From a virus, in the IMG/VR virus record IMGVR_UViG_3300020152_000002, positions 1 to 64,000 of that record: a stretch of DNA of 64,000 nt. One strand, 5' to 3'. Made by a program: the position numbers and the translations under genes. Positions 8,215 through 21,876 of the stretch are shown piece after piece; position 1 is the stretch's first letter, and every line of letters starts with the position of its first letter. Under the pieces are notes generated by a model. It was not told the DNA's origin. It searched no databases and was given only the letters and a program-made list of their open reading frames with translations.

Positions 8215-8541
8215 TCAGTCTTCCAGCGGTTCCAGACAGAGCGGATAGCCGAAGTCCGCCGCCTCGTCTATGATGACGACGATCCTGAACGCGCTACCCG
8301 TCGTGGACAGCCCCGGCATGTGGTTCTGGTTCGCCCGCAGGATCGCTTCGCGGCGTTCCTCGTTGCTGAACACGACATCCGGGTTCGGACGTTCGGCGTG
8401 ACCGAAGATGTTTGGCATGACGCCGCGTTCGGACGTATAGAACTTCCCGCTGCGCTTGAAGATGTAGAAGGTCGCGTTCTTTGCCGGGATCGGGACTGCG
8501 CCCTTGGCCGGTTCCAGATCGGTCAGGTTCTCAAGGTCCAT
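8215..8541 (-). CDS. hypothetical protein
   Basis: 108 aa; TGATG coupling. Confidence 0.75.
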   Translation of the reverse strand: MDLENLTDLEPAKGAVPIPAKNATFYIFKRSGKFYTSERGVMPNIFGHAERPNPDVVFSNEERREAILRANQNHMPGLSTTGSAFRIVVIIDEAADFGYPLCLEPLED

Positions 8542-9188
8542 CAGTTCATCCCTCCGGTGTAGTGTTCACCGCTGCCGCCGCATTCCTGGCAGCGTGATCC
8601 GTCCTTCGCGCGGCCGGTGCTTTCGCATTCGGTGCAGGGCGTCGAGACGACGATCTTGACCGGCTCGTATTCCATGCCCAGCAGGCGGCAGGCTTCCTTG
8701 CTCAAGGAGCCGTCAGGATCGCCGGGGTAGATGCCCGCCATCTGGTAGAGGAACAGCCCCTCGCGGACCCGCATCAGCAGCTTGCCAAGGTGGTTCTCAC
8801 CGTGGCCGCCGCAGACGCCCCAGTAGCAGTCGCCCCATGTGTTGCCTTCGATCAGTTCGACCGGCGGATTGACCGTCGCCAACAGCTTGTCGCGCAGATC
8901 GGTGTTCAGCAGGAACTTCGACCGCAGGACAGCGAGCATGATGTCGAGCTTCCGGTCGTGGAAGTCCGGCGACCAAAGGTGCTTGAACGCCTTGGCATGT
9001 TTCTTGGTCTCGCCCGGCGTCGGGAGCACCCTGATCTTCTCGCGGTGCGGGCTGCCGTCCGGGAACTTCGCGGCCTGATAGGCGTGTTCGCTCGTCGGAT
9101 AGACGACGCCTTCGTAAACACAGGTTGCGTAGTAGAAGTTGGACAGGTAGCGGTTCGGCCCGTCGAATGAAGTGATCGCCACCATCAC
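8541..9188 (-). CDS. NADAR (YbiA/DUF1768) family hydrolase with a C-terminal CxxC zinc ribbon
   Basis: LSNFY, YPTSEHAYQAAKF, LIEGNTWGDCYWG, GENHLGKLLMRVR are NADAR signature motifs; CTECESTG...CQECGGSG tail. Confidence 0.92.
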   Translation of the reverse strand: MMVAITSFDGPNRYLSNFYYATCVYEGVVYPTSEHAYQAAKFPDGSPHREKIRVLPTPGETKKHAKAFKHLWSPDFHDRKLDIMLAVLRSKFLLNTDLRDKLLATVNPPVELIEGNTWGDCYWGVCGGHGENHLGKLLMRVREGLFLYQMAGIYPGDPDGSLSKEACRLLGMEYEPVKIVVSTPCTECESTGRAKDGSRCQECGGSGEHYTGGMN

Positions 9189-9712
9189 CGTTCCTCGTGA
9201 TGCTCGTGCAGGTCCAGTGGACAGTGCCGCCCGGACAGCGCCGGTTCACCGTCACGAAGCTGCGGGCACTCCGCCCAGTTGCACTCCCCGTCGCTCGCGC
9301 CGTGGCACATGGTGCCCTTCGGGAAGTTGGCGACGGCCGCCTGCATCCCGGCGTGACCGTCGTGCCAAATCTGGTGCTCGTGAGAGCCCGGCGGATGCGG
9401 GTTGGCCTCGGGGCTGTCGCCACGCAGGAAGGCGTGACGACCGGCGCGCAGCAGGGCCTTGTTCGGCGTGTCGCCGGGGATCGCCACCAGCGTCTTAAGC
9501 GCCTCCGGGTCCAGCCTCGGCATCTTGATCTCGTAGCGGACTTCCGGCTGCACCACTTCCAGCGTCAACTCGCTGCCACAGGTGACGCACTCTGCCTTGA
9601 CGACCGGACGCGCGCCATTGCCTTCGCTCGCGCCTGTGAACAGGGCGAACGCCGACGCCCGACACTTCGGGCACCACAGCGGGTCGGACGGGTTATGACG
9701 CAGCCGGATCAT
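9185..9712 (-). CDS. zinc-binding hypothetical protein with an Rmf/CrpP-like motif
   Basis: CPKC..CVTC; GRHAFLRG..NPH..WHDG; C-terminal Cys/His cluster. Confidence 0.7.
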   Translation of the reverse strand: MIRLRHNPSDPLWCPKCRASAFALFTGASEGNGARPVVKAECVTCGSELTLEVVQPEVRYEIKMPRLDPEALKTLVAIPGDTPNKALLRAGRHAFLRGDSPEANPHPPGSHEHQIWHDGHAGMQAAVANFPKGTMCHGASDGECNWAECPQLRDGEPALSGRHCPLDLHEHHEER

Positions 9713-9897
9713 CAGCCCTCGCTCTCGTCGGCGGGGCGCGTCCATTGCTCGACTTCGGTCATCTCGAAGGAGCCGTAGGATCGCACCATGCGGTTGCCCT
9801 TAAGCTCCTTGATCTTCTTGTCGCGCTCGGACTTCGTGGAGAACCCTTCCCGGCGTTCCTCCCCGTCGAAGTCGTAGATCAAAACGTAGCGTTCCAT
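9712..9897 (-). CDS. small hypothetical protein
   Basis: MERYVLIY..., 61 aa; start uncertain. Confidence 0.6.
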   Translation of the reverse strand: MERYVLIYDFDGEERREGFSTKSERDKKIKELKGNRMVRSYGSFEMTEVEQWTRPADESEG

Positions 9898-9940
9898 GGC
9901 CGTCTCTCTTGCCAGCGTCATCGCCCGCTGGCTTGGCGTC

Positions 9941-10150
9941 TCACTGATACGGGTCGTTCGGTTCTTCGCGCCGACAGACCGCGCACCGGGTGTCCAGCTT
10001 GTTCGGCGTGAACCCCTCGGGACAGGTGCAGTAGCGTTTCGCATACCGCGTGAACTGGTCTTCCCGGAAGAACCAGATGTAGATGCAGGCCGCGAGGAAG
10101 ATCAGGACGCCGATCACCAGCGCCCATTCCTTGCCGGGTTCAACCGACAT
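9941..10150 (-). CDS. small membrane-anchored Cys-rich protein
   Basis: N-terminal TM, then CTC..CAVC; GGAGG RBS. Confidence 0.65.
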   Translation of the reverse strand: MSVEPGKEWALVIGVLIFLAACIYIWFFREDQFTRYAKRYCTCPEGFTPNKLDTRCAVCRREEPNDPYQ

Positions 10151-10403
10151 TGACGCCTCCGAACAGATACAGGGCGGCGACGATCACCGCCGACAGGATG
10201 ATGACGTGCAGCGCGTCGCGGGCGGCGCGCTTGGCGTCGTGACCGCGATAGCCGTAGTTCGTGCTGAACGACATGAAGCCGAGCAGCAGCGGCAGGATCA
10301 CGAGCAGCCAGCGCGGATCGCGGATGGCGAGCGCCGCCAGCGCACCGAAGACCGCCATGCCCGCGATGGGCGCGACGCGGTTGATCAGGAAACTACTGGT
10401 CAT
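10140..10403 (-). CDS. small multi-TM membrane protein
   Basis: Three hydrophobic segments; start at MTSSFL. Confidence 0.65.
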   Translation of the reverse strand: MTSSFLINRVAPIAGMAVFGALAALAIRDPRWLLVILPLLLGFMSFSTNYGYRGHDAKRAARDALHVIILSAVIVAALYLFGGVNVG

Positions 10404-10902
10404 CGGACACCGCCTTTCGGATGCGCGCGATCCAGCGGCCAAGGCGTTCGCGGATGCGCTGTTTCACGGGCTTGTAGATGGTCTGGACGATCTCGCCCGG
10501 CGTCAGGGCCTTCGGCCGCTGCGCGGTGTAGGGCACGTCCGCCAGCAGCACCGTGGGTTCGCCCTTGATCGGATCGCTGCCGAGAAGCTGCGTCGGCACT
10601 TCGACGAGGGCCAGCGCGTGATGGATGGCGGCCGTCACCGTCGTCTTGCCGGAGCCATGCGGACCCTCCACGAACACCGTCACCGGGCCGGGCACCGCCT
10701 TGACCGCCACGAACAGGTCGATCAGGTCGGCGGCTTGGCCGAGTATCTGCGGACTGGCTTGGAAGTCGCGGTCGAACTTCTTCCGCAGAGACGGATCACC
10801 AAGGTTGCCGAACTCGCCACTGTTTTGCAGCGAGTAGCGGACGGCGTTCCATTCCTTCTCGGTGAGCCGGACGTGCGCGGTGTCGTGTTTGAGGGCTGCC
10901 AT
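10393..10902 (-). CDS. hypothetical protein with a P-loop
   Basis: VFVEGPHGSGKTT Walker A; CAGGAG RBS. Confidence 0.75.
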   Translation of the reverse strand: MAALKHDTAHVRLTEKEWNAVRYSLQNSGEFGNLGDPSLRKKFDRDFQASPQILGQAADLIDLFVAVKAVPGPVTVFVEGPHGSGKTTVTAAIHHALALVEVPTQLLGSDPIKGEPTVLLADVPYTAQRPKALTPGEIVQTIYKPVKQRIRERLGRWIARIRKAVSDDQ

Positions 10903-10958
10903 GCCGTGCTTTGATCTCCTGCGTGAACGGGCTGCGTCGCCCTGACCGTGAGACCTAA

Positions 10959-10987
10959 GCCCTACGCCCAGCCCTTAGACCTGTCAA
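10959..10987 (-). promoter_or_regulatory. sigma70-like promoter
   Basis: TTGACA-N17-TAGGGC. Confidence 0.65.
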
Positions 10988-11017
10988 GCACCAGAAATCG
11001 GGCAAGCCCGGATACAC

Positions 11018-11045
11018 GAAACCCCCGATCCGAAGACCGGGGGCT
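11018..11045 (-). terminator. intrinsic terminator
   Basis: CCCCCGGTC-TTCG-GATCGGGGG followed by TTTCGT. Confidence 0.75.
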
Positions 11046-11230
11046 CGTTGGCGGAGCCTTGGTTGTTGGACCGGCGGCTCGCCGGGGAGATGTCGGGTCG
11101 TGGACGCTCCCCAGCGCCACGGCATCACGCCCGACTCATGCCCTTCGCCCTGTCGCTATCAGGCTCGGGTAATCCAAGGCCCGGAGGGGAGGCCGCGTAA
11201 GAGGCCAGCCGGACCAGCGACGGATCAGGC
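11018..11230 (-). ncRNA. candidate structured non-coding RNA (~210 nt)
   Basis: Own promoter (TTGACA 11264-11259, TAGGGT 11240-11235) and terminator; several nested helices; no credible ORF. Confidence 0.5.
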
Positions 11231-11237
11231 GGCGACC

Positions 11238-11747
11238 CTAGTCCGGCTCCGGCGAGCCTGTCAAGCGGGCCTGTTCTCGGGCCACATAGTCGGGGTCTGC
11301 GGGCCGGGGCCACCCCTGCTGCTGGGCCAGCAGCATCTTGGCGTCACGCTTCCGCTTGCGTTCCAGCTTGGCCTCGATCTTCGCCTGTCGCCGGGCTCGC
11401 TTCTCGGCCGCGTAGACCGGGTTGGCGTTCCGCTCCTGCCGCAGGCGCGTGTAGATCGGGATGGCGAGCGGAAGGATGCGCGCCTGTATGGCGAGTTCCT
11501 TCTTCGTCGGCATCCGGTTCCCCTTGCCGCCGTTACATGGACTGCAAGCTGCCAGCCCGTTTTTGATGCTGTTGCGACCGCCCTTCGACTTCGGGATGAC
11601 GTGATCGAACGTAGGCCAGACGGCAGGTGCATCGACTTCGATGTCCTCCGTCGTGAACTTGGCCGGGCAGTAGGCGCAAACCCCGCCTTGGGCTTCGACG
11701 AGCGCGAGAACGCGCATCGTCAAGGCTTGTGTGCTCTTTCTGCCCAC
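11238..11747 (-). CDS. HNH endonuclease
   Basis: CAYC...TFDHVIPKSKGG.N...NGLAACSPCNGGKG. Confidence 0.92.
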   Translation of the reverse strand: MGRKSTQALTMRVLALVEAQGGVCAYCPAKFTTEDIEVDAPAVWPTFDHVIPKSKGGRNSIKNGLAACSPCNGGKGNRMPTKKELAIQARILPLAIPIYTRLRQERNANPVYAAEKRARRQAKIEAKLERKRKRDAKMLLAQQQGWPRPADPDYVAREQARLTGSPEPD

Positions 11748-12070
11748 TAGGACGCTCTACGAATGAACCCGACGAACCGGCCGCCGATATAGACGCCGTG
11801 CTGCCACGCGCGTCGATAGTCCTGCGCCGAATAGAACGGCCCCATGCGGTAGCTCCACATGTAGACGCCCCGCTCGAAGTTGTAGCCGATGCCGAGCGGC
11901 TTGGACACCCATCGCCACTCGGCACCCTCCGGCGGGTCCATGCGCTGCGGCAGGGCCGCCAGAGCCCGCGCCCGGAGGCGCAGGACCGGGGCGACCGCCC
12001 GGCGGCGCTGGGCTGCCCACCAGACGATGAGAGCCAGCCGCCGGGCCTGCCAGATCGACCGATCAGCCAA
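11747..12070 (-). CDS. hypothetical protein
   Basis: 107 aa; overlaps both neighbours in operon fashion. Confidence 0.6.
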   Translation of the reverse strand: MADRSIWQARRLALIVWWAAQRRRAVAPVLRLRARALAALPQRMDPPEGAEWRWVSKPLGIGYNFERGVYMWSYRMGPFYSAQDYRRAWQHGVYIGGRFVGFIRRAS

Positions 12071-13031
12071 TGATCTGCCCCCACTCGTCGGTGACGGGCT
12101 CGCTGGACGGCGCAGCCTCGGCCAAGGGAGCCGACGCCGGGGCTGCCAGTTCTTCCTCGCTGAACCCGGCTTCGCGGGCGACCCGGAACATCACGTCGCG
12201 GTTGAAGTTGGACAGCGTGGCGTCGTTCAGGGCCTCCCGGATGTCCGACAGCAGCGCCTCGCGCTTCGTCTGGCGCTCCTTCATCATCCGCTCGCGTTCG
12301 GCGGCGCGCTCGGCCGCTTCCCGCTCCGCCTGTTCGGCGCGCAGGCGTCGGTCTTCGAGCCACAGACGGTCTTCTTCGAGGATCGCCGGGCGGGTCTTGA
12401 GGCGGCCTTGCTCGGACAGCGTGGGGAACAGCATCAGGGCTTCTTCCTTCGACCCGAAGTTCTTGGCGTCGTGCATGAACATCTTGTCGCTGCTGTCACT
12501 GATGCGCTTCTCGTAGCTCATCACCGCTCCGCTCACGCGCGGATTGCGCGGCTCGGCATCGCTGGCGCGCGTCTCGCGTTCCCAGCCGTGGATTTCCCAC
12601 AGTTGCCCCCAGCCGTTGTCGATGCAGATGAAACCGACGACCCGATCTTCTTCCTCGTCCGCCAGAATGCCGGTGTCGATCACCGGGTAGACGGACTTGT
12701 AGCCGTAGCGACGGACACCGTAGGGGTTGTTCTCATCGGACGCATCCACGCGCTCGCCGAGCGTAAAGCCGATGGGTTCCGCCTTGAGCTTGGCGGCCAG
12801 CATCTTCGACTGGCACTTCGAGCACGGCCGAAACGCCTTCTCGTAGTCCGTCATTCCATAGGGCAGCGTGTAGGTGCCGAAGCTCGACTTGAACCCCCGG
12901 CCGGTCTCGCCGCACCACGCGGTGAAGTTCACGCGCTCCGGGCCGGTCGTGCCGTCGCCGTTCTGCGACAGTTCCCCGGTGTCCTCGCGGCTCTTGACGA
13001 TATGATCGCGGCGTCCAGATGAGCGGGCCAT
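12063..13031 (-). CDS. hypothetical protein with a coiled coil
   Basis: 322 aa; AGGAGG RBS; E/R-rich helix; ends DEWGQIIG. Confidence 0.85.
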   Translation of the reverse strand: MARSSGRRDHIVKSREDTGELSQNGDGTTGPERVNFTAWCGETGRGFKSSFGTYTLPYGMTDYEKAFRPCSKCQSKMLAAKLKAEPIGFTLGERVDASDENNPYGVRRYGYKSVYPVIDTGILADEEEDRVVGFICIDNGWGQLWEIHGWERETRASDAEPRNPRVSGAVMSYEKRISDSSDKMFMHDAKNFGSKEEALMLFPTLSEQGRLKTRPAILEEDRLWLEDRRLRAEQAEREAAERAAERERMMKERQTKREALLSDIREALNDATLSNFNRDVMFRVAREAGFSEEELAAPASAPLAEAAPSSEPVTDEWGQIIG

Positions 13032-13073
13032 ATTGCAGCCTCCTATGATGACGTGGCGTTATTGCAGCCACCG

Positions 13074-13131
13074 AAAAAGGGTGCCGCCGAAGCGACACCC
13101 CTCTCTAGGACAGTTTGATGCGGACTGTCAA
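13074..13131 (-). promoter_or_regulatory. overlapping promoter and intrinsic terminator
   Basis: TTGACA-N18-TAGAGA (13131-13102) directly followed by GGGTGTCGC-TTCG-GCGGCACCC-TTTTT (13100-13074). Confidence 0.7.
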
Positions 13132-13427
13132 GCGCGGCGAAACTTGAAGCTCGCGTCGTAGGTTTCGTTGTAGGCGGGCTTGTCGTATTCGACCTTCCAG
13201 CCTGCGTCACGGTAGGCTTCTTCGACGTTCAGCCAGCCGTTGTCGAAGATTTCCTGCCGAACCATACCGCCCGCTTCCAGCTTCGCCAGCACGTCCTTTT
13301 GCAGGATGGTGGCGCTGCCGTTCGTGAACTTGAGCGCCAGCAGTTCGTTGAAGGCGTCGAACACCGCCTCCGGGATATGCTGGCGCTTCGCGGCTGCGAT
13401 GTCGTCGGGGGATAGCGGACCCGCCAT
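13128..13427 (-). CDS. hypothetical phage protein
   Basis: MAGPLSP...GWKVEYDKP; AAGGAG RBS; start re-called. Confidence 0.8.
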   Translation of the reverse strand: MAGPLSPDDIAAAKRQHIPEAVFDAFNELLALKFTNGSATILQKDVLAKLEAGGMVRQEIFDNGWLNVEEAYRDAGWKVEYDKPAYNETYDASFKFRRA

Positions 13428-13672
13428 CAGTCGTCTCCTTCCACGCTCTGTTGAACTTCGAGGACAGTGGCGAAGGTCTCGCCCCTGATCTTGCTGCCGA
13501 AGGGTTTGTAGCAGAAGCCGCCCTTGGCCGGGATGATCTCGCCCGTCTTCTTGCCGTCGATCTTGACCACGATCCTGTCGGCCCCGCGCTGAACCGGGCG
13601 CGGCGACTGATAGTATTCGATGGTGGCCCCGCCGACGATCCGGCAGCGCCGGATCAGCTTCGCGTTGTTGGC
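13427..13672 (-). CDS. small coding frame without a canonical start (readthrough, non-AUG start or pseudogene)
   Basis: 81 open codons in frame after the TAA of the upstream gene; typical codon usage; ends in TGATG coupling. Confidence 0.5.
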   Translation of the reverse strand, partial: ANNAKLIRRCRIVGGATIEYYQSPRPVQRGADRIVVKIDGKKTGEIIPAKGGFCYKPFGSKIRGETFATVLEVQQSVEGDD

Positions 13673-19453: not shown

Positions 19454-19495
19454 CCCATAAAGAAGGCCGGGCAGGCTGTCAACCTACCCGGCCTT
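19454..19495 (-). promoter_or_regulatory. terminator hairpin containing a promoter -35 box
   Basis: Hairpin AAGGCCGGGTAGG...CCTGCCCGGCCTT-CTTTAT; TTGACA-N17-TATGGG. Confidence 0.65.
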
Positions 19496-20388: not shown

Positions 20389-21876
20389 TCACAGGATGTC
20401 GAACTCGTCGTCCGTGGCCGATATGTCGGGCGTGATGCGGTAGCCACCGCCATCCTTCGTGAAGGGAGGCGTCGGCGCTTCGATGATCCGCTCGGCTTCG
20501 CGCGCCACGGCGATCATGCTGTCCAGCGCAGCGGTGGTCGCCTCGGTCTCGGCGGCAGGCTTGATACGCAGGGCCATGATGCGTCCTTGCGGACCCCCGT
20601 CGCGGACGACCGTCACGCCCGGCGCACGAGCAGCCTTCTCGGCTTCGCGCTGCACTTCGTCAGACGGCCCGACAGGGATATAGCCATCTTCGTCGGCGGC
20701 ATGGAGCATCACCGGATCAGGCGGCGATCCGGTCATCTCACCGAGAATGTCCCACGGGTTTGTGGCCGTCTGGTAGATCGGCGTCCCGTCAGGCCATGCG
20801 CCAAACGACAGGTCCAGATCGGAAGGACCGTCACTCCCGGCAGGCGGATCAGACGGCAACATGATGTCCACGCCAGAGCCCTCGTAGGCGCTGTCGTCCG
20901 GCGCGAGTTCTCCGGTCGCCTCGGCGCGGATCGCGGCAGCCAGCATCGGCACGACGTGCTTCCCGGCGTCGGTCAGCCGCCAGTCGAACTTGCCCTTGCG
21001 CCGGATCAGGCCGAGCACGGCGAGCAGGCGGCAATGCTTGGCCGGACGCATCACGTCGGACAGGCCGGAGGCGAGCCAGTCCTGAAACCGCTGCGGACAC
21101 AGACGCGCAAGGGTGAAGCCGTCGCGCTCGCCGGAGGCCAGAGCAGCGGTGACGGCGCGCATCTCGTAAGAGCACCGCCAGTAGTCCACGTCGCCGTCAC
21201 GCACGAGTTGGATCATGCCCGCACCGTCCTCGGTCATGTTGAACGGACGAAGCTGGCGACCGTCCATGTGCGACGACTTCCACGCGACGCCGGGAAGGAT
21301 CGTCGTCTGCGTTAGGAAGGCGCATAGCTCGGGAGCGTATTCGACCGTGACGCGCGTCTCCGGCGTGAAGGACCGTCCTCCCTGTTTGCGCTGGGCCAGT
21401 TCGTCGAAGGCGAGTAGCAGTTCATTGGAGGGAATGAGACCATCCCCCCTCGGCGCAGGGAGCAATACCCCCAGCGCCTCGAACATGATGCCCCCCGGCA
21501 GTTTTGCGATGGGGGGTGGTCCAGACAGCCAGTCGAGGATGCCCTGCGGTAGCTCGGCCAAGACATCGGCCAAGGGAAAGAGCGGGGGAAGCGTCCGGCG
21601 GTCGCGGCTCATCGGCGGGAGCGCCTTGGCCCACGCTAGGCCGAAGGCGTTCAGCTTGAAGGCGCTCTCCGGGGGCCTGCCGTCGTTTATGCGGGAATCG
21701 GCGAGCGTTATTTGCGCCATGTTCCAGTCGGTCAGCTTGGTCTCGGACTTGGCGAACTGGCTGGTGCTGGCGGGGAGCGGATGCGGGTATTCCGCGTAGC
21801 ACTCCGCAAGGGCCTGATGGGTGTAGCGGTCGAGCCGAACCCAAGCCCGGCCTTGCTTTATTTGGATCATGGACAT
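20389..21876 (-). CDS. large hypothetical protein, first gene of the leftward arm
   Basis: 495 aa; acidic tail ending TDDEFDIL. Confidence 0.85.
   Translation of the reverse strand: MSMIQIKQGRAWVRLDRYTHQALAECYAEYPHPLPASTSQFAKSETKLTDWNMAQITLADSRINDGRPPESAFKLNAFGLAWAKALPPMSRDRRTLPPLFPLADVLAELPQGILDWLSGPPPIAKLPGGIMFEALGVLLPAPRGDGLIPSNELLLAFDELAQRKQGGRSFTPETRVTVEYAPELCAFLTQTTILPGVAWKSSHMDGRQLRPFNMTEDGAGMIQLVRDGDVDYWRCSYEMRAVTAALASGERDGFTLARLCPQRFQDWLASGLSDVMRPAKHCRLLAVLGLIRRKGKFDWRLTDAGKHVVPMLAAAIRAEATGELAPDDSAYEGSGVDIMLPSDPPAGSDGPSDLDLSFGAWPDGTPIYQTATNPWDILGEMTGSPPDPVMLHAADEDGYIPVGPSDEVQREAEKAARAPGVTVVRDGGPQGRIMALRIKPAAETEATTAALDSMIAVAREAERIIEAPTPPFTKDGGGYRITPDISATDDEFDIL

Follow-up and report, generated by a model that had tools for sequence, protein, structure and literature searches.

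A predicted structured non-coding RNA gene downstream of an HNH endonuclease gene in a relative of Brevundimonas phage Delta

Introduction

Small non-coding RNAs that end at a terminator are produced by several phages and prophages, among them the oop RNA of phage lambda and the DicF- and IpeX-type small RNAs (sRNAs) of prophages. In alphaproteobacteria, sRNAs such as those of the AbcR and alpha-r14 'cuckoo' types carry exposed C-rich motifs that resemble an anti-Shine-Dalgarno sequence. Few non-coding RNAs are known from phages that infect alphaproteobacteria, and none has been annotated in the Delta-like phages of Brevundimonas. Here we analyse a gap of 335 nt on the minus strand of an uncultured virus (IMG/VR record IMGVR_UViG_3300020152_000002), located downstream of a gene for an HNH endonuclease, which may hold the gene for a structured non-coding RNA.

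Units of another kind have been described in T4-type phages, in which promoter-early stem-loop (PeSL) cassettes flank small protein genes and shuffle genes (PMC2839356). The window, by which we mean the whole 64,000-nt stretch of DNA that was analysed, covers 64 kb from the start of a virus record that is 87,606 bp long and has direct terminal repeats, and its G+C content is about 62-67%. By blastn, the nearest named relatives are the Brevundimonas siphophages Delta, Fanboy, BabaJaga, Poludnitsa and Leszy; 71% of the genome could be aligned to Delta, with a mean identity of 80%. The gap lies within a leftward block of small genes, between the HNH gene and the next gene, which starts at 10902, and all elements of the locus are read on the minus strand. 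A preliminary description had proposed that a promoter and a UUCG terminator enclose here a region with no credible open reading frame (ORF), possibly an sRNA or a new class of RNA.

Results

A putative promoter-to-terminator unit in the gap

Our best explanation, which we hold with moderate confidence, is that the gap is the gene for a stand-alone structured non-coding phage RNA of about 215 nt, belonging to a new and narrowly distributed family. It is the simplest reading because a promoter-like site is kept while the coding sequence around it drifts, a two-part terminator and then a putative restart promoter follow it, the core is better conserved than its surroundings, the helices show compensatory changes and no reading frame is present. 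The corresponding place in each of the five Delta-like phages is a gap of about 347 nt without annotation; their feature tables list no RNA gene here, and the available parts of the genome papers (PMC9437464, PMC10070969) mention no RNA at this position. A full-text search of the literature on Brevundimonas, phage and sRNA found nothing relevant among the papers listed.

The pattern TTGACA-N15-20-TAGGG occurs twice in the window, at 11264 and 10987, where shuffled sequences gave an expectation of 0.04, and two or more matches were found in none of 100 shuffles. The first of these promoter-like sites, here called promoter P1, overlaps the end of the HNH gene in such a way that the TAG of its -10 element also serves as stop codon of the HNH ORF. 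Its TTGACAG and TAGG(G/T)T elements were kept in the Delta-like phages and in a third lineage, the IMG/VR contig L126 (see below), whereas the overlapping C-terminus of the HNH protein diverges. Promoter P1 is one of a family of TTGACAG-N16-18-TA-rich sites on the same strand, the others being at 19482, 14259, 13131 and 10987. The last of these is promoter P2, which was also kept in the Delta-like phages and L126 and has one 10-mer in common with promoter P1. A strict consensus scan listed neither promoter P1 nor promoter P2, so that both assignments rest on motif readings. The -35 element of P1-type sites fits the Caulobacter RpoD consensus TTGaCgS given in PMC8144410. Elsewhere in the leftward block, the TTGACAG-N16-18-TA(G/T)(G/A)G-type sites at 19482, 14259 and 13131 (minus strand) head groups of genes, and the leaders behind the 19482 site and promoter P2 both contain a short hairpin and, behind it, (A/G)UUCAC(G)CAGGAG ahead of the start codon.

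At the other end of the unit, terminator T1 consists of the hairpin CCCCCGGUC-UUCG-GAUCGGGGG (11043-11022) followed by UUUCGUGUAU. Its folding energy is -21.2 kcal/mol, and the hairpin is present in the minimum free energy (MFE) structure. The letters of the stem differ in all three lineages while pairing is kept, with energies of -27.5 in Delta and -20.7 in L126. A strict terminator scan of 9000-13500 returned no site; one hypothetical explanation, in our reading, is that T1 was missed since extension of the stem consumes the U run. The second hairpin, T2, is conserved in Delta and L126, and its 12-mer is present in eight copies in the 87.6-kb genome. In three of the eight copies (11010-, 61263+ and 79220+) the 12-mer directly follows a large GC hairpin and a U-rich spacer, and the combination of large GC hairpin and T2 is probably a standard two-part terminator module of this phage. 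The gap thus contains an intrinsic terminator of the kind expected for a stand-alone small RNA gene, made of the T1 hairpin with its U-rich tail and then T2. The full set of 12-mer sites is 4754(+), 11010(-), 16363(-), 35966(+), 44915(-) and 61263(+) in the window, and 79220(+) and 83332(-) beyond it; a U run often lies behind the copies.

We placed the 5' end of the predicted RNA 5-10 nt past the -10 element and its 3' end in the U-rich tail of T1. If the transcript ran on to T2, its length would be about 237 nt. The positions of all features are collected in Table 1.

Table 1. Positions of the predicted RNA, its parts and its neighbours in the window.
Feature	Position	Strand	Description
Predicted non-coding RNA, about 215 nt	11014..11230	-	Promoter-to-terminator span
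Conserved 130-nt core	11050..11179	-	P3, junction, linker, domain 2, CUCCCC, P5, CA-rich stretch
Promoter-like site P1	11235..11264	-	TTGACA(G) 11264-11259, 18-nt spacer, TAGGGT 11240-11235
Promoter-like site P2	10959..10987	-	TTGACA-N17-TAGGGC
Terminator T1	11012..11046	-	GC-rich hairpin with UUCG loop, U-rich tail
Second hairpin T2	10993..11010	-	CGGG-CUUG-CCCG, then AUUUCU
Domain 1	11152..11221	-	Helix P1 (11221-11216 with 11157-11152) closing a multiloop
Arm A	11178..11215	-	Outer stem GGUCCGG/CCGGGCC, inner stem GGCC/GGCC, loop UCUUACGC
Hairpin P3	11164..11178	-	CUUGG-AUUAC-CCGAG
Domain 2, local model A	11092..11135	-	GUCGGG-CGUG (11135-11126) with CACG-A-CCCGAC (11102-11092)
C-rich stretch and hairpin P5	11071..11089	-	CUCCCC (11089-11084); CCGGC/GCCGG (11085-11081 with 11075-11071)
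HNH endonuclease gene, 169 amino acids	11238..11747	-	Pfam HNH_5 1.5e-11, HNH 3.7e-9

The gap has no conserved reading frame and no known RNA family

ORFs of 50-74 amino acids can be drawn in the gap; these run across the terminators, and the longer frames cross both terminators and promoter P2. Indels of 1, 1, 3 and 1-2 nt between lineages break every frame in the gap, which therefore has no conserved reading frame, as expected for a stand-alone small RNA gene. The promoter and terminator named in the preliminary description were thus both present, and no frame between them was conserved.

We compared the sequence with catalogued RNA families. No match was found in the whole window with the 4227 families of Rfam 15 at gathering scores, nor between 10850 and 11350 at E values up to 10. 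The same search on Delta and L126 gave only two weak matches (E 1.5 and 2.3), both off the RNA loci. ARAGORN found no transfer RNA (tRNA) or transfer-messenger RNA (tmRNA) gene in the window, in agreement with the earlier statement that the element is not a tRNA. The idea of an sRNA or new RNA class hence stands as regards a non-coding, structured unit from promoter to terminator that belongs to no Rfam family, while the discrete transcript is only deduced. Several candidates noticed by eye in the RNA, namely hammerhead-like CUGAU words, box C/D-like words, CsrA-type GGA loops and a pairing of the leader with T1, lacked support or did not exceed chance.

A conserved core and an exchangeable arm

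The unit contains a core in which a purine-rich linker, AGGGCGAAGGGCAUGAG, separates the first domain from the second, and which includes a CA-rich stretch, CCAACAA...GGCUCCGCC. Mean column identity in the core was 96% among the window, Delta and Fanboy. Windows of 40 nt across the core (11175-11085) were 88-93% identical to Delta, compared with 55-82% in the HNH coding region. With windows of 100 nt the core reached 0.92-0.94, which places it in the top 3-6% genome-wide and in the top 2.1% (46/2190) of the 1-22 kb block. The part that varies between lineages is the arm inside the first multiloop.

The third lineage, L126, was recovered through the promoter P2 motif and is the same contig as metagenome locus L127. 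Promoter P1, still overlapping the stop codon, is kept in it together with the leader, arm A, the two terminator hairpins and promoter P2, and another body stands in place of the core. Judged from these comparisons, the window is a mosaic in which the arm is of the L126 type and the core of the Delta type. Behind promoter P2 the lineages differ again: in the Delta-like phages and L126 an ORFan of 220-230 amino acids (663-nt gene) stands between promoter P2 and the P-loop gene, and this ORFan is not present in the window. The corresponding sites are 10903-10958 in the window, 1839-2501 of the Delta locus and 2145-2837 of L126.

Wastewater contigs of relatives provided further comparisons. In one of them, position 10739 is joined to 10912 with 787 other letters between. 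The other, from an RNA library, comes from a close relative and covers 10998-11700. Among the differences listed for it, at least two fall in the RNA (a base substitution at 11190 and an insertion of one base at 11062) and at least 19 base changes fall in the HNH stretch 11277-11700; beyond those listed, the contig has 27 further base changes and 11 further indels.

Predicted fold and compensatory changes

All the pairings named in the preliminary description are present in the sequence. Two of them, GGUCCGG/CCGGGCC and CUUGG/CCGAG, have C11178 in common and cannot both be full length because this base is used by both. In the predicted fold, domain 1 is a multiloop that contains arm A, hairpin P3 and an invariant junction, CCUGAU. 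The closing helix P1 had a pairing probability of 0.93-0.97 in the window. From the window to the Delta group, both partners have changed in two of its six pairs (U-A to C-G and C-G to U-A), and the other four are invariant. Hairpin P3 is identical in all six aligned sequences and therefore provides no covariation test.

Arm A is present in the window and L126, where the Delta-like phages have two short hairpins. Its 3' internal loop, UCCCCU, lies within the stretch CCUCCCCUCC. The outer stem reads GC GC UG CG CG GC GC in the window and GU CG AU CG CG GC GC in L126, which amounts to two compensatory pairs; in the inner stem L126 has one pair fewer, one base having gone from each side.

Domain 2 can be drawn in two ways. 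In local model A, it encloses an inner hairpin, GCGCU-GGGG-AGCGU (11117-11104), and shows one compensatory pair (U-A to A-U), the remaining pairs being invariant except for one that is broken. The pairing probability of this model was 0.56-0.68 in the window; in Delta it was 0.02-0.03 and in Fanboy 0.18-0.19, a long-range alternative (model B) prevailing in these two. In model B, the same 5' strand is paired at long range with the GGCUCCGCC region, together with GGGAG/CUCCC. Model B was preferred by RNAalifold and by the Delta ensemble, and model A by the window ensemble. The long-range helix is lengthened by indels in Delta and in the close relative of the window, and both folds may exist. 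Between domain 2 and the terminator, hairpin P5 keeps the letters of its stem while its loop varies from 3 to 7 nt between lineages; the CUCCC ahead of it can alternatively pair with GGGAG of the domain 2 inner hairpin.

We then scored the helices on an alignment of the window with the Delta group. Since they had been proposed beforehand from the window alone, the test is independent and not circular. Among 26 pairs, 22 were invariant, three were compensatory and one was broken in four of five distinct sequences; helix P1 accounts for two of the compensatory pairs and the domain 2 outer stem for the third. This result was matched by 3 of 500 shuffles, and sliding the partners by 1-3 columns gave 0. 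Covariation as expected of a structured RNA gene is therefore present, thin as it is with three lineages, and it adds up to three of these 26 pairs and two pairs in arm A. Of the helices proposed at the outset, GUCGCU/AGCGAC and GUCGGG/CCCGAC gained compensatory pairs from the Delta-like phages and GGUCCGG/CCGGGCC from L126; the inner part of domain 2 fared less well, another pairing being favoured in Delta.

The RNA of L126 (227 nt including its body) is strongly structured, with a folding energy z-score of -4.38. The G.U pairs of hairpin P3, of arm A and of the domain 2 inner hairpin would turn into A.C mismatches on the other strand. The orientation of the RNA rests on the promoter, the terminator and these G.U pairs, because folding energies do not separate the strands. 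What stands above chance, as far as the sequences indicate, is conservation and covariation with relatives, and not thermodynamic stability.

Wider searches and RNA libraries

The element was found in 5 of 50,697 records of a phage collection. In IMG/VR, a query with the 322-amino-acid neighbour returned only the L126 contig, as did a metagenome scan with the promoter P2 motif, and another metagenome scan, with a 21-mer, returned no stretch. The HNH protein as query gave one distant locus in IMG/VR (29% identity), which was not inspected for the RNA. No copy of the RNA was found in 151 Brevundimonas genomes.

A number of other matches were rejected. Those given by blastn in Arthrobacter and Mycobacterium phages covered 9-15% of the query at the terminator hairpin only and were taken as chance. 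Exact words gave one stretch (linker 18-mer) and 24 stretches (P3 15-mer) in IMG/VR, none of the 25 with a second motif of the RNA. Among species genomes the 18-mer gave 93 stretches; a check for a second motif (9-mer), covering 137 loci, found it at one locus only (L095), which a covariance model of the core scored at 13.7 bits (E 0.096), a chance match. The same model matched in 11 of the 151 Brevundimonas genomes at E values of at most 0.1, the best match (25.1 bits) lying inside an ORF of 410 amino acids. A repeat of a leader 15-mer at 20727-20713 falls inside a coding region and was attributed to chance. A perfect 14-nt complement of 11135-11122 at 20425-20438, in the message of a 495-amino-acid ORF, has no counterpart in Delta and is probably also due to chance.

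In two small soil metatranscriptome libraries, we found contigs identical to 10985-11267 and to 10993-11143 (0 differences). Sequencing runs with a share below 0.2 were set aside, and parts left uncovered in the runs used were given no meaning. Assembled contigs reveal neither RNA ends nor strand; these are compatible with transcription of the locus and weak as evidence for a discrete RNA.

Neighbouring genes and a second unit

In the HNH protein, 22 PHROG families matched, 20 of them named HNH endonuclease. The HNH gene and the gap are found at the same place in all relatives, and the exchange of the RNA body in L126 does not follow the HNH gene; the suggestion that adjacency to an HNH gene hints at a mobile unit was therefore not borne out. 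Pfam gave no match for ten proteins neighbouring the gap. Further along the minus strand, a 215-amino-acid protein (8541-9188) has a NADAR domain (5.4e-21), and a 186-amino-acid protein (9185-9745) has a weak likeness to ribosome modulation factor that falls below the cutoff (1.5e-4; 22.2 bits against 27.9).

Outside the window, a second non-coding unit runs from promoter to terminator at about genome positions 78856-79240 (+). It has TTGACAG-N17-ATACAG, a length of about 330 nt and the same two-part terminator, and its MFE z-score is -2.57. Each of the five Delta-like phages matches it with 81-82% identity along some 397 nt, at an unannotated gap between DELTA_59 and DELTA_60. The covariance model of the core gave no match to this unit. 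If it is a true non-coding RNA, these phages would carry several such RNAs.

Discussion

How the RNA would be made and act

If the gap is a stand-alone RNA gene, the housekeeping RNA polymerase of the host would start at promoter P1, whose -10 element overlaps the HNH stop codon, and transcription would stop at the two-part intrinsic terminator T1/T2. Promoter P2, directly behind the terminator, would restart transcription into the downstream genes, so that the RNA would be insulated from them. The RNA is predicted to fold into a 5' multiloop that is closed by helix P1 and bears a lineage-specific arm and the invariant P3, followed by the single-stranded purine-rich linker, the second hairpin domain, the exposed CUCCCC and CA-rich stretches and the terminator. 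A discrete RNA would then accumulate and most likely act in trans during infection, either by base-pairing through its exposed C-rich or CA-rich segments or by binding or titrating a host or phage protein. No target is proposed for a trans-acting RNA, because no conserved complement of 11 nt or more was found in the phage messages. A base-pairing target, if there is one, would be short-seeded or host-encoded, and we infer that protein binding is equally possible. The locus could also be described as a modular slot, in which the frame of promoter and terminator is kept while the arm or the whole body is exchanged, probably by recombination at the repeated regulatory signals.

Several observations weigh against a stand-alone RNA. 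The body of L126 (about 140 nt) is unrelated to the core of the window, local alignment giving a score of 17 against 16.4 +/- 2.4 for shuffles; the core is therefore dispensable for this type of phage. Because only three lineages are available, the covariation amounts to about five independent events. In the Delta group, one pair of domain 2 is lost (C-G to C.U), and this domain is ambiguous, with a local hairpin in the window and the long-range model in Delta. The folding energy of the window sequence has a z-score of -1.45, and 16 of 200 shuffles folded equally well. The opposite strand also folds equally well (z-scores of -1.16, -1.97 and -4.33, against -1.45, -2.17 and -4.38). The high identity between the window and Delta may in part reflect recent exchange. 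In the soil libraries, the contigs of the locus were as shallow (depth 2.3-3.2) as those on neighbouring genes (3-4.7); as they include the promoter region, they may represent DNA carry-over or read-through of the HNH message. No stretch of at least 11 nt complementary to a phage message was kept in both the window genome and Delta. Finally, the -10 element of promoter P1 fits the Caulobacter -10 consensus GCtANAWC (PMC8144410) in the CTA core only.

Alternative explanations

The element could instead act in cis, either as a structured 3' untranslated region of the HNH operon or as a leader or attenuator that governs how far transcription from upstream and from promoter P1 gets past T1/T2 into the P-loop operon, with the two folds of domain 2 forming a switch. 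Transcripts of the HNH gene must enter the region, the two exclusive pairings use the same 5' strand with a preference that differs between the window and Delta, and the strand used by model B lies just ahead of the terminator. However, conserved promoter P2 stands between the terminators and the next gene, which makes the downstream genes independent of read-through, and the gene behind it is not the same (the P-loop gene in the window, the ORFan in Delta and L126) although the window and Delta share the core. We did not find a 5' leader with the terminator as its sole gate, as would be expected for a riboswitch or attenuator. Neither of the exclusive domain 2 folds uses the T1 stem in both lineages, no antiterminator pairing with this stem is conserved (candidates found by eye were not conserved or at chance level), and no riboswitch family matched. 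We thus regard action in cis as unlikely, if still worth keeping in mind.

Another explanation is that the conservation operates at the level of DNA or is historical, the locus being a regulatory cassette that shuffles modules and the core having been exchanged recently between the window and Delta. The mosaic nature of the window (arm as in L126, core as in Delta), the unrelated body of L126, the 663-nt gene that stands behind promoter P2 in Delta and L126 and not in the window, and the joining of 10739 to 10912 in the contig of a relative all fit this explanation, as does the repetition of the signals in the genome (the 10-mer of promoters P1 and P2, the eight copies of T2). Recent exchange does not, however, explain the compensatory changes in helices (three in the core, two in arm A), nor the close relative, in which the listed changes are much scarcer in the RNA than in the adjoining HNH gene. 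Shuffling and a function of the RNA are not mutually exclusive: shuffling accounts for the variability of the slot and leaves the compensatory changes unaccounted for. As a full explanation of the locus, we consider DNA-level or historical conservation rather improbable.

It is very unlikely that the RNA serves the adjacent HNH nuclease as cofactor or regulator, be it as a guide, as a scaffold on its basic C-terminal tail or as an inhibitor. In every lineage the RNA directly adjoins the HNH gene, its promoter lying within the 3' end of that gene, the HNH proteins of the window and L126 have a lysine- and arginine-rich tail, and the type of arm (A or B) tracks the type of HNH protein. As the arm physically adjoins the gene, linkage alone explains this correlation. 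The body does not track the HNH protein: L126 has the HNH protein closer to that of the window (76% amino acid identity, compared with 63% for Delta) and an unrelated body, and it is this independent variation that makes a partnership unlikely. Moreover, the 169-amino-acid protein has an HNH domain only, and neither HEARO nor any other Rfam family matched. That the gap encodes a small protein is hardly credible since, apart from the 50-74-amino-acid ORFs that can be drawn and a four-codon AUG frame in the linker of the window and Delta, there is no Shine-Dalgarno-like sequence at a workable distance from any start, and the longer frames cross both terminators and promoter P2 and are broken by indels in relatives.

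A stand-alone non-coding RNA remains our preferred reading. Much more tentatively, and with some doubt, we suggest that the locus might be a 'swappable RNA slot', a fixed frame of promoter, short leader and two-part terminator that receives unrelated, strongly structured cargo RNAs and forms a non-coding counterpart of the protein 'morons'. Such cargo might be tuned to the host, for instance as decoys of a defence or RNA-binding protein of the host. If the stand-alone reading is true, the locus provides a new RNA family with a defined core and a clear case of exchange of RNA cargo between fixed signals; if the gap is merely a regulatory spacer, the finding is an ordinary one. Since Delta and its host B. 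subvibrioides ATCC 15264 can be cultivated, the prediction is directly testable.

Comparison with known systems

The predicted RNA resembles the small non-coding RNAs of phages such as oop and DicF in being a short unit with a host-type promoter, an intrinsic terminator and no frame, and with exposed single strands beside hairpins. It differs from them in that it has no kinship in sequence or in Rfam and in that, with about 215 nt and a multiloop, it is longer and more branched; its transcription is a prediction. With the alphaproteobacterial AbcR and alpha-r14 types it has in common C-rich motifs, UCCCCU in arm A and CUCCCC between the hairpins, that could pair with GGAG-type ribosome-binding sites. 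Unlike in these sRNAs, the motifs are partly sequestered and the Delta-like phages are devoid of arm A, and there was no Rfam match at E values up to 10.

The position of a structured RNA beside an HNH-domain gene recalls HEARO and the omega-RNA of IscB. However, a HEARO fold beside a protein with RuvC and HNH domains was not found here: no Rfam family matched, the 169-amino-acid protein has an HNH domain without RuvC, and the RNA, which is located downstream of the HNH gene, does not vary in step with it.

The PeSL cassettes of T4-type phages offer a further parallel. As in these cassettes, repeated sigma-70-like promoters and terminator stem-loops occur in an ORFan-rich region, and sequence comparison places such repeated units at the borders of indels and replacements, recombination being presumed. 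The locus departs from them in that its cargo is a conserved structured non-coding sequence and in that it is carried by unrelated siphophages of an alphaproteobacterium.

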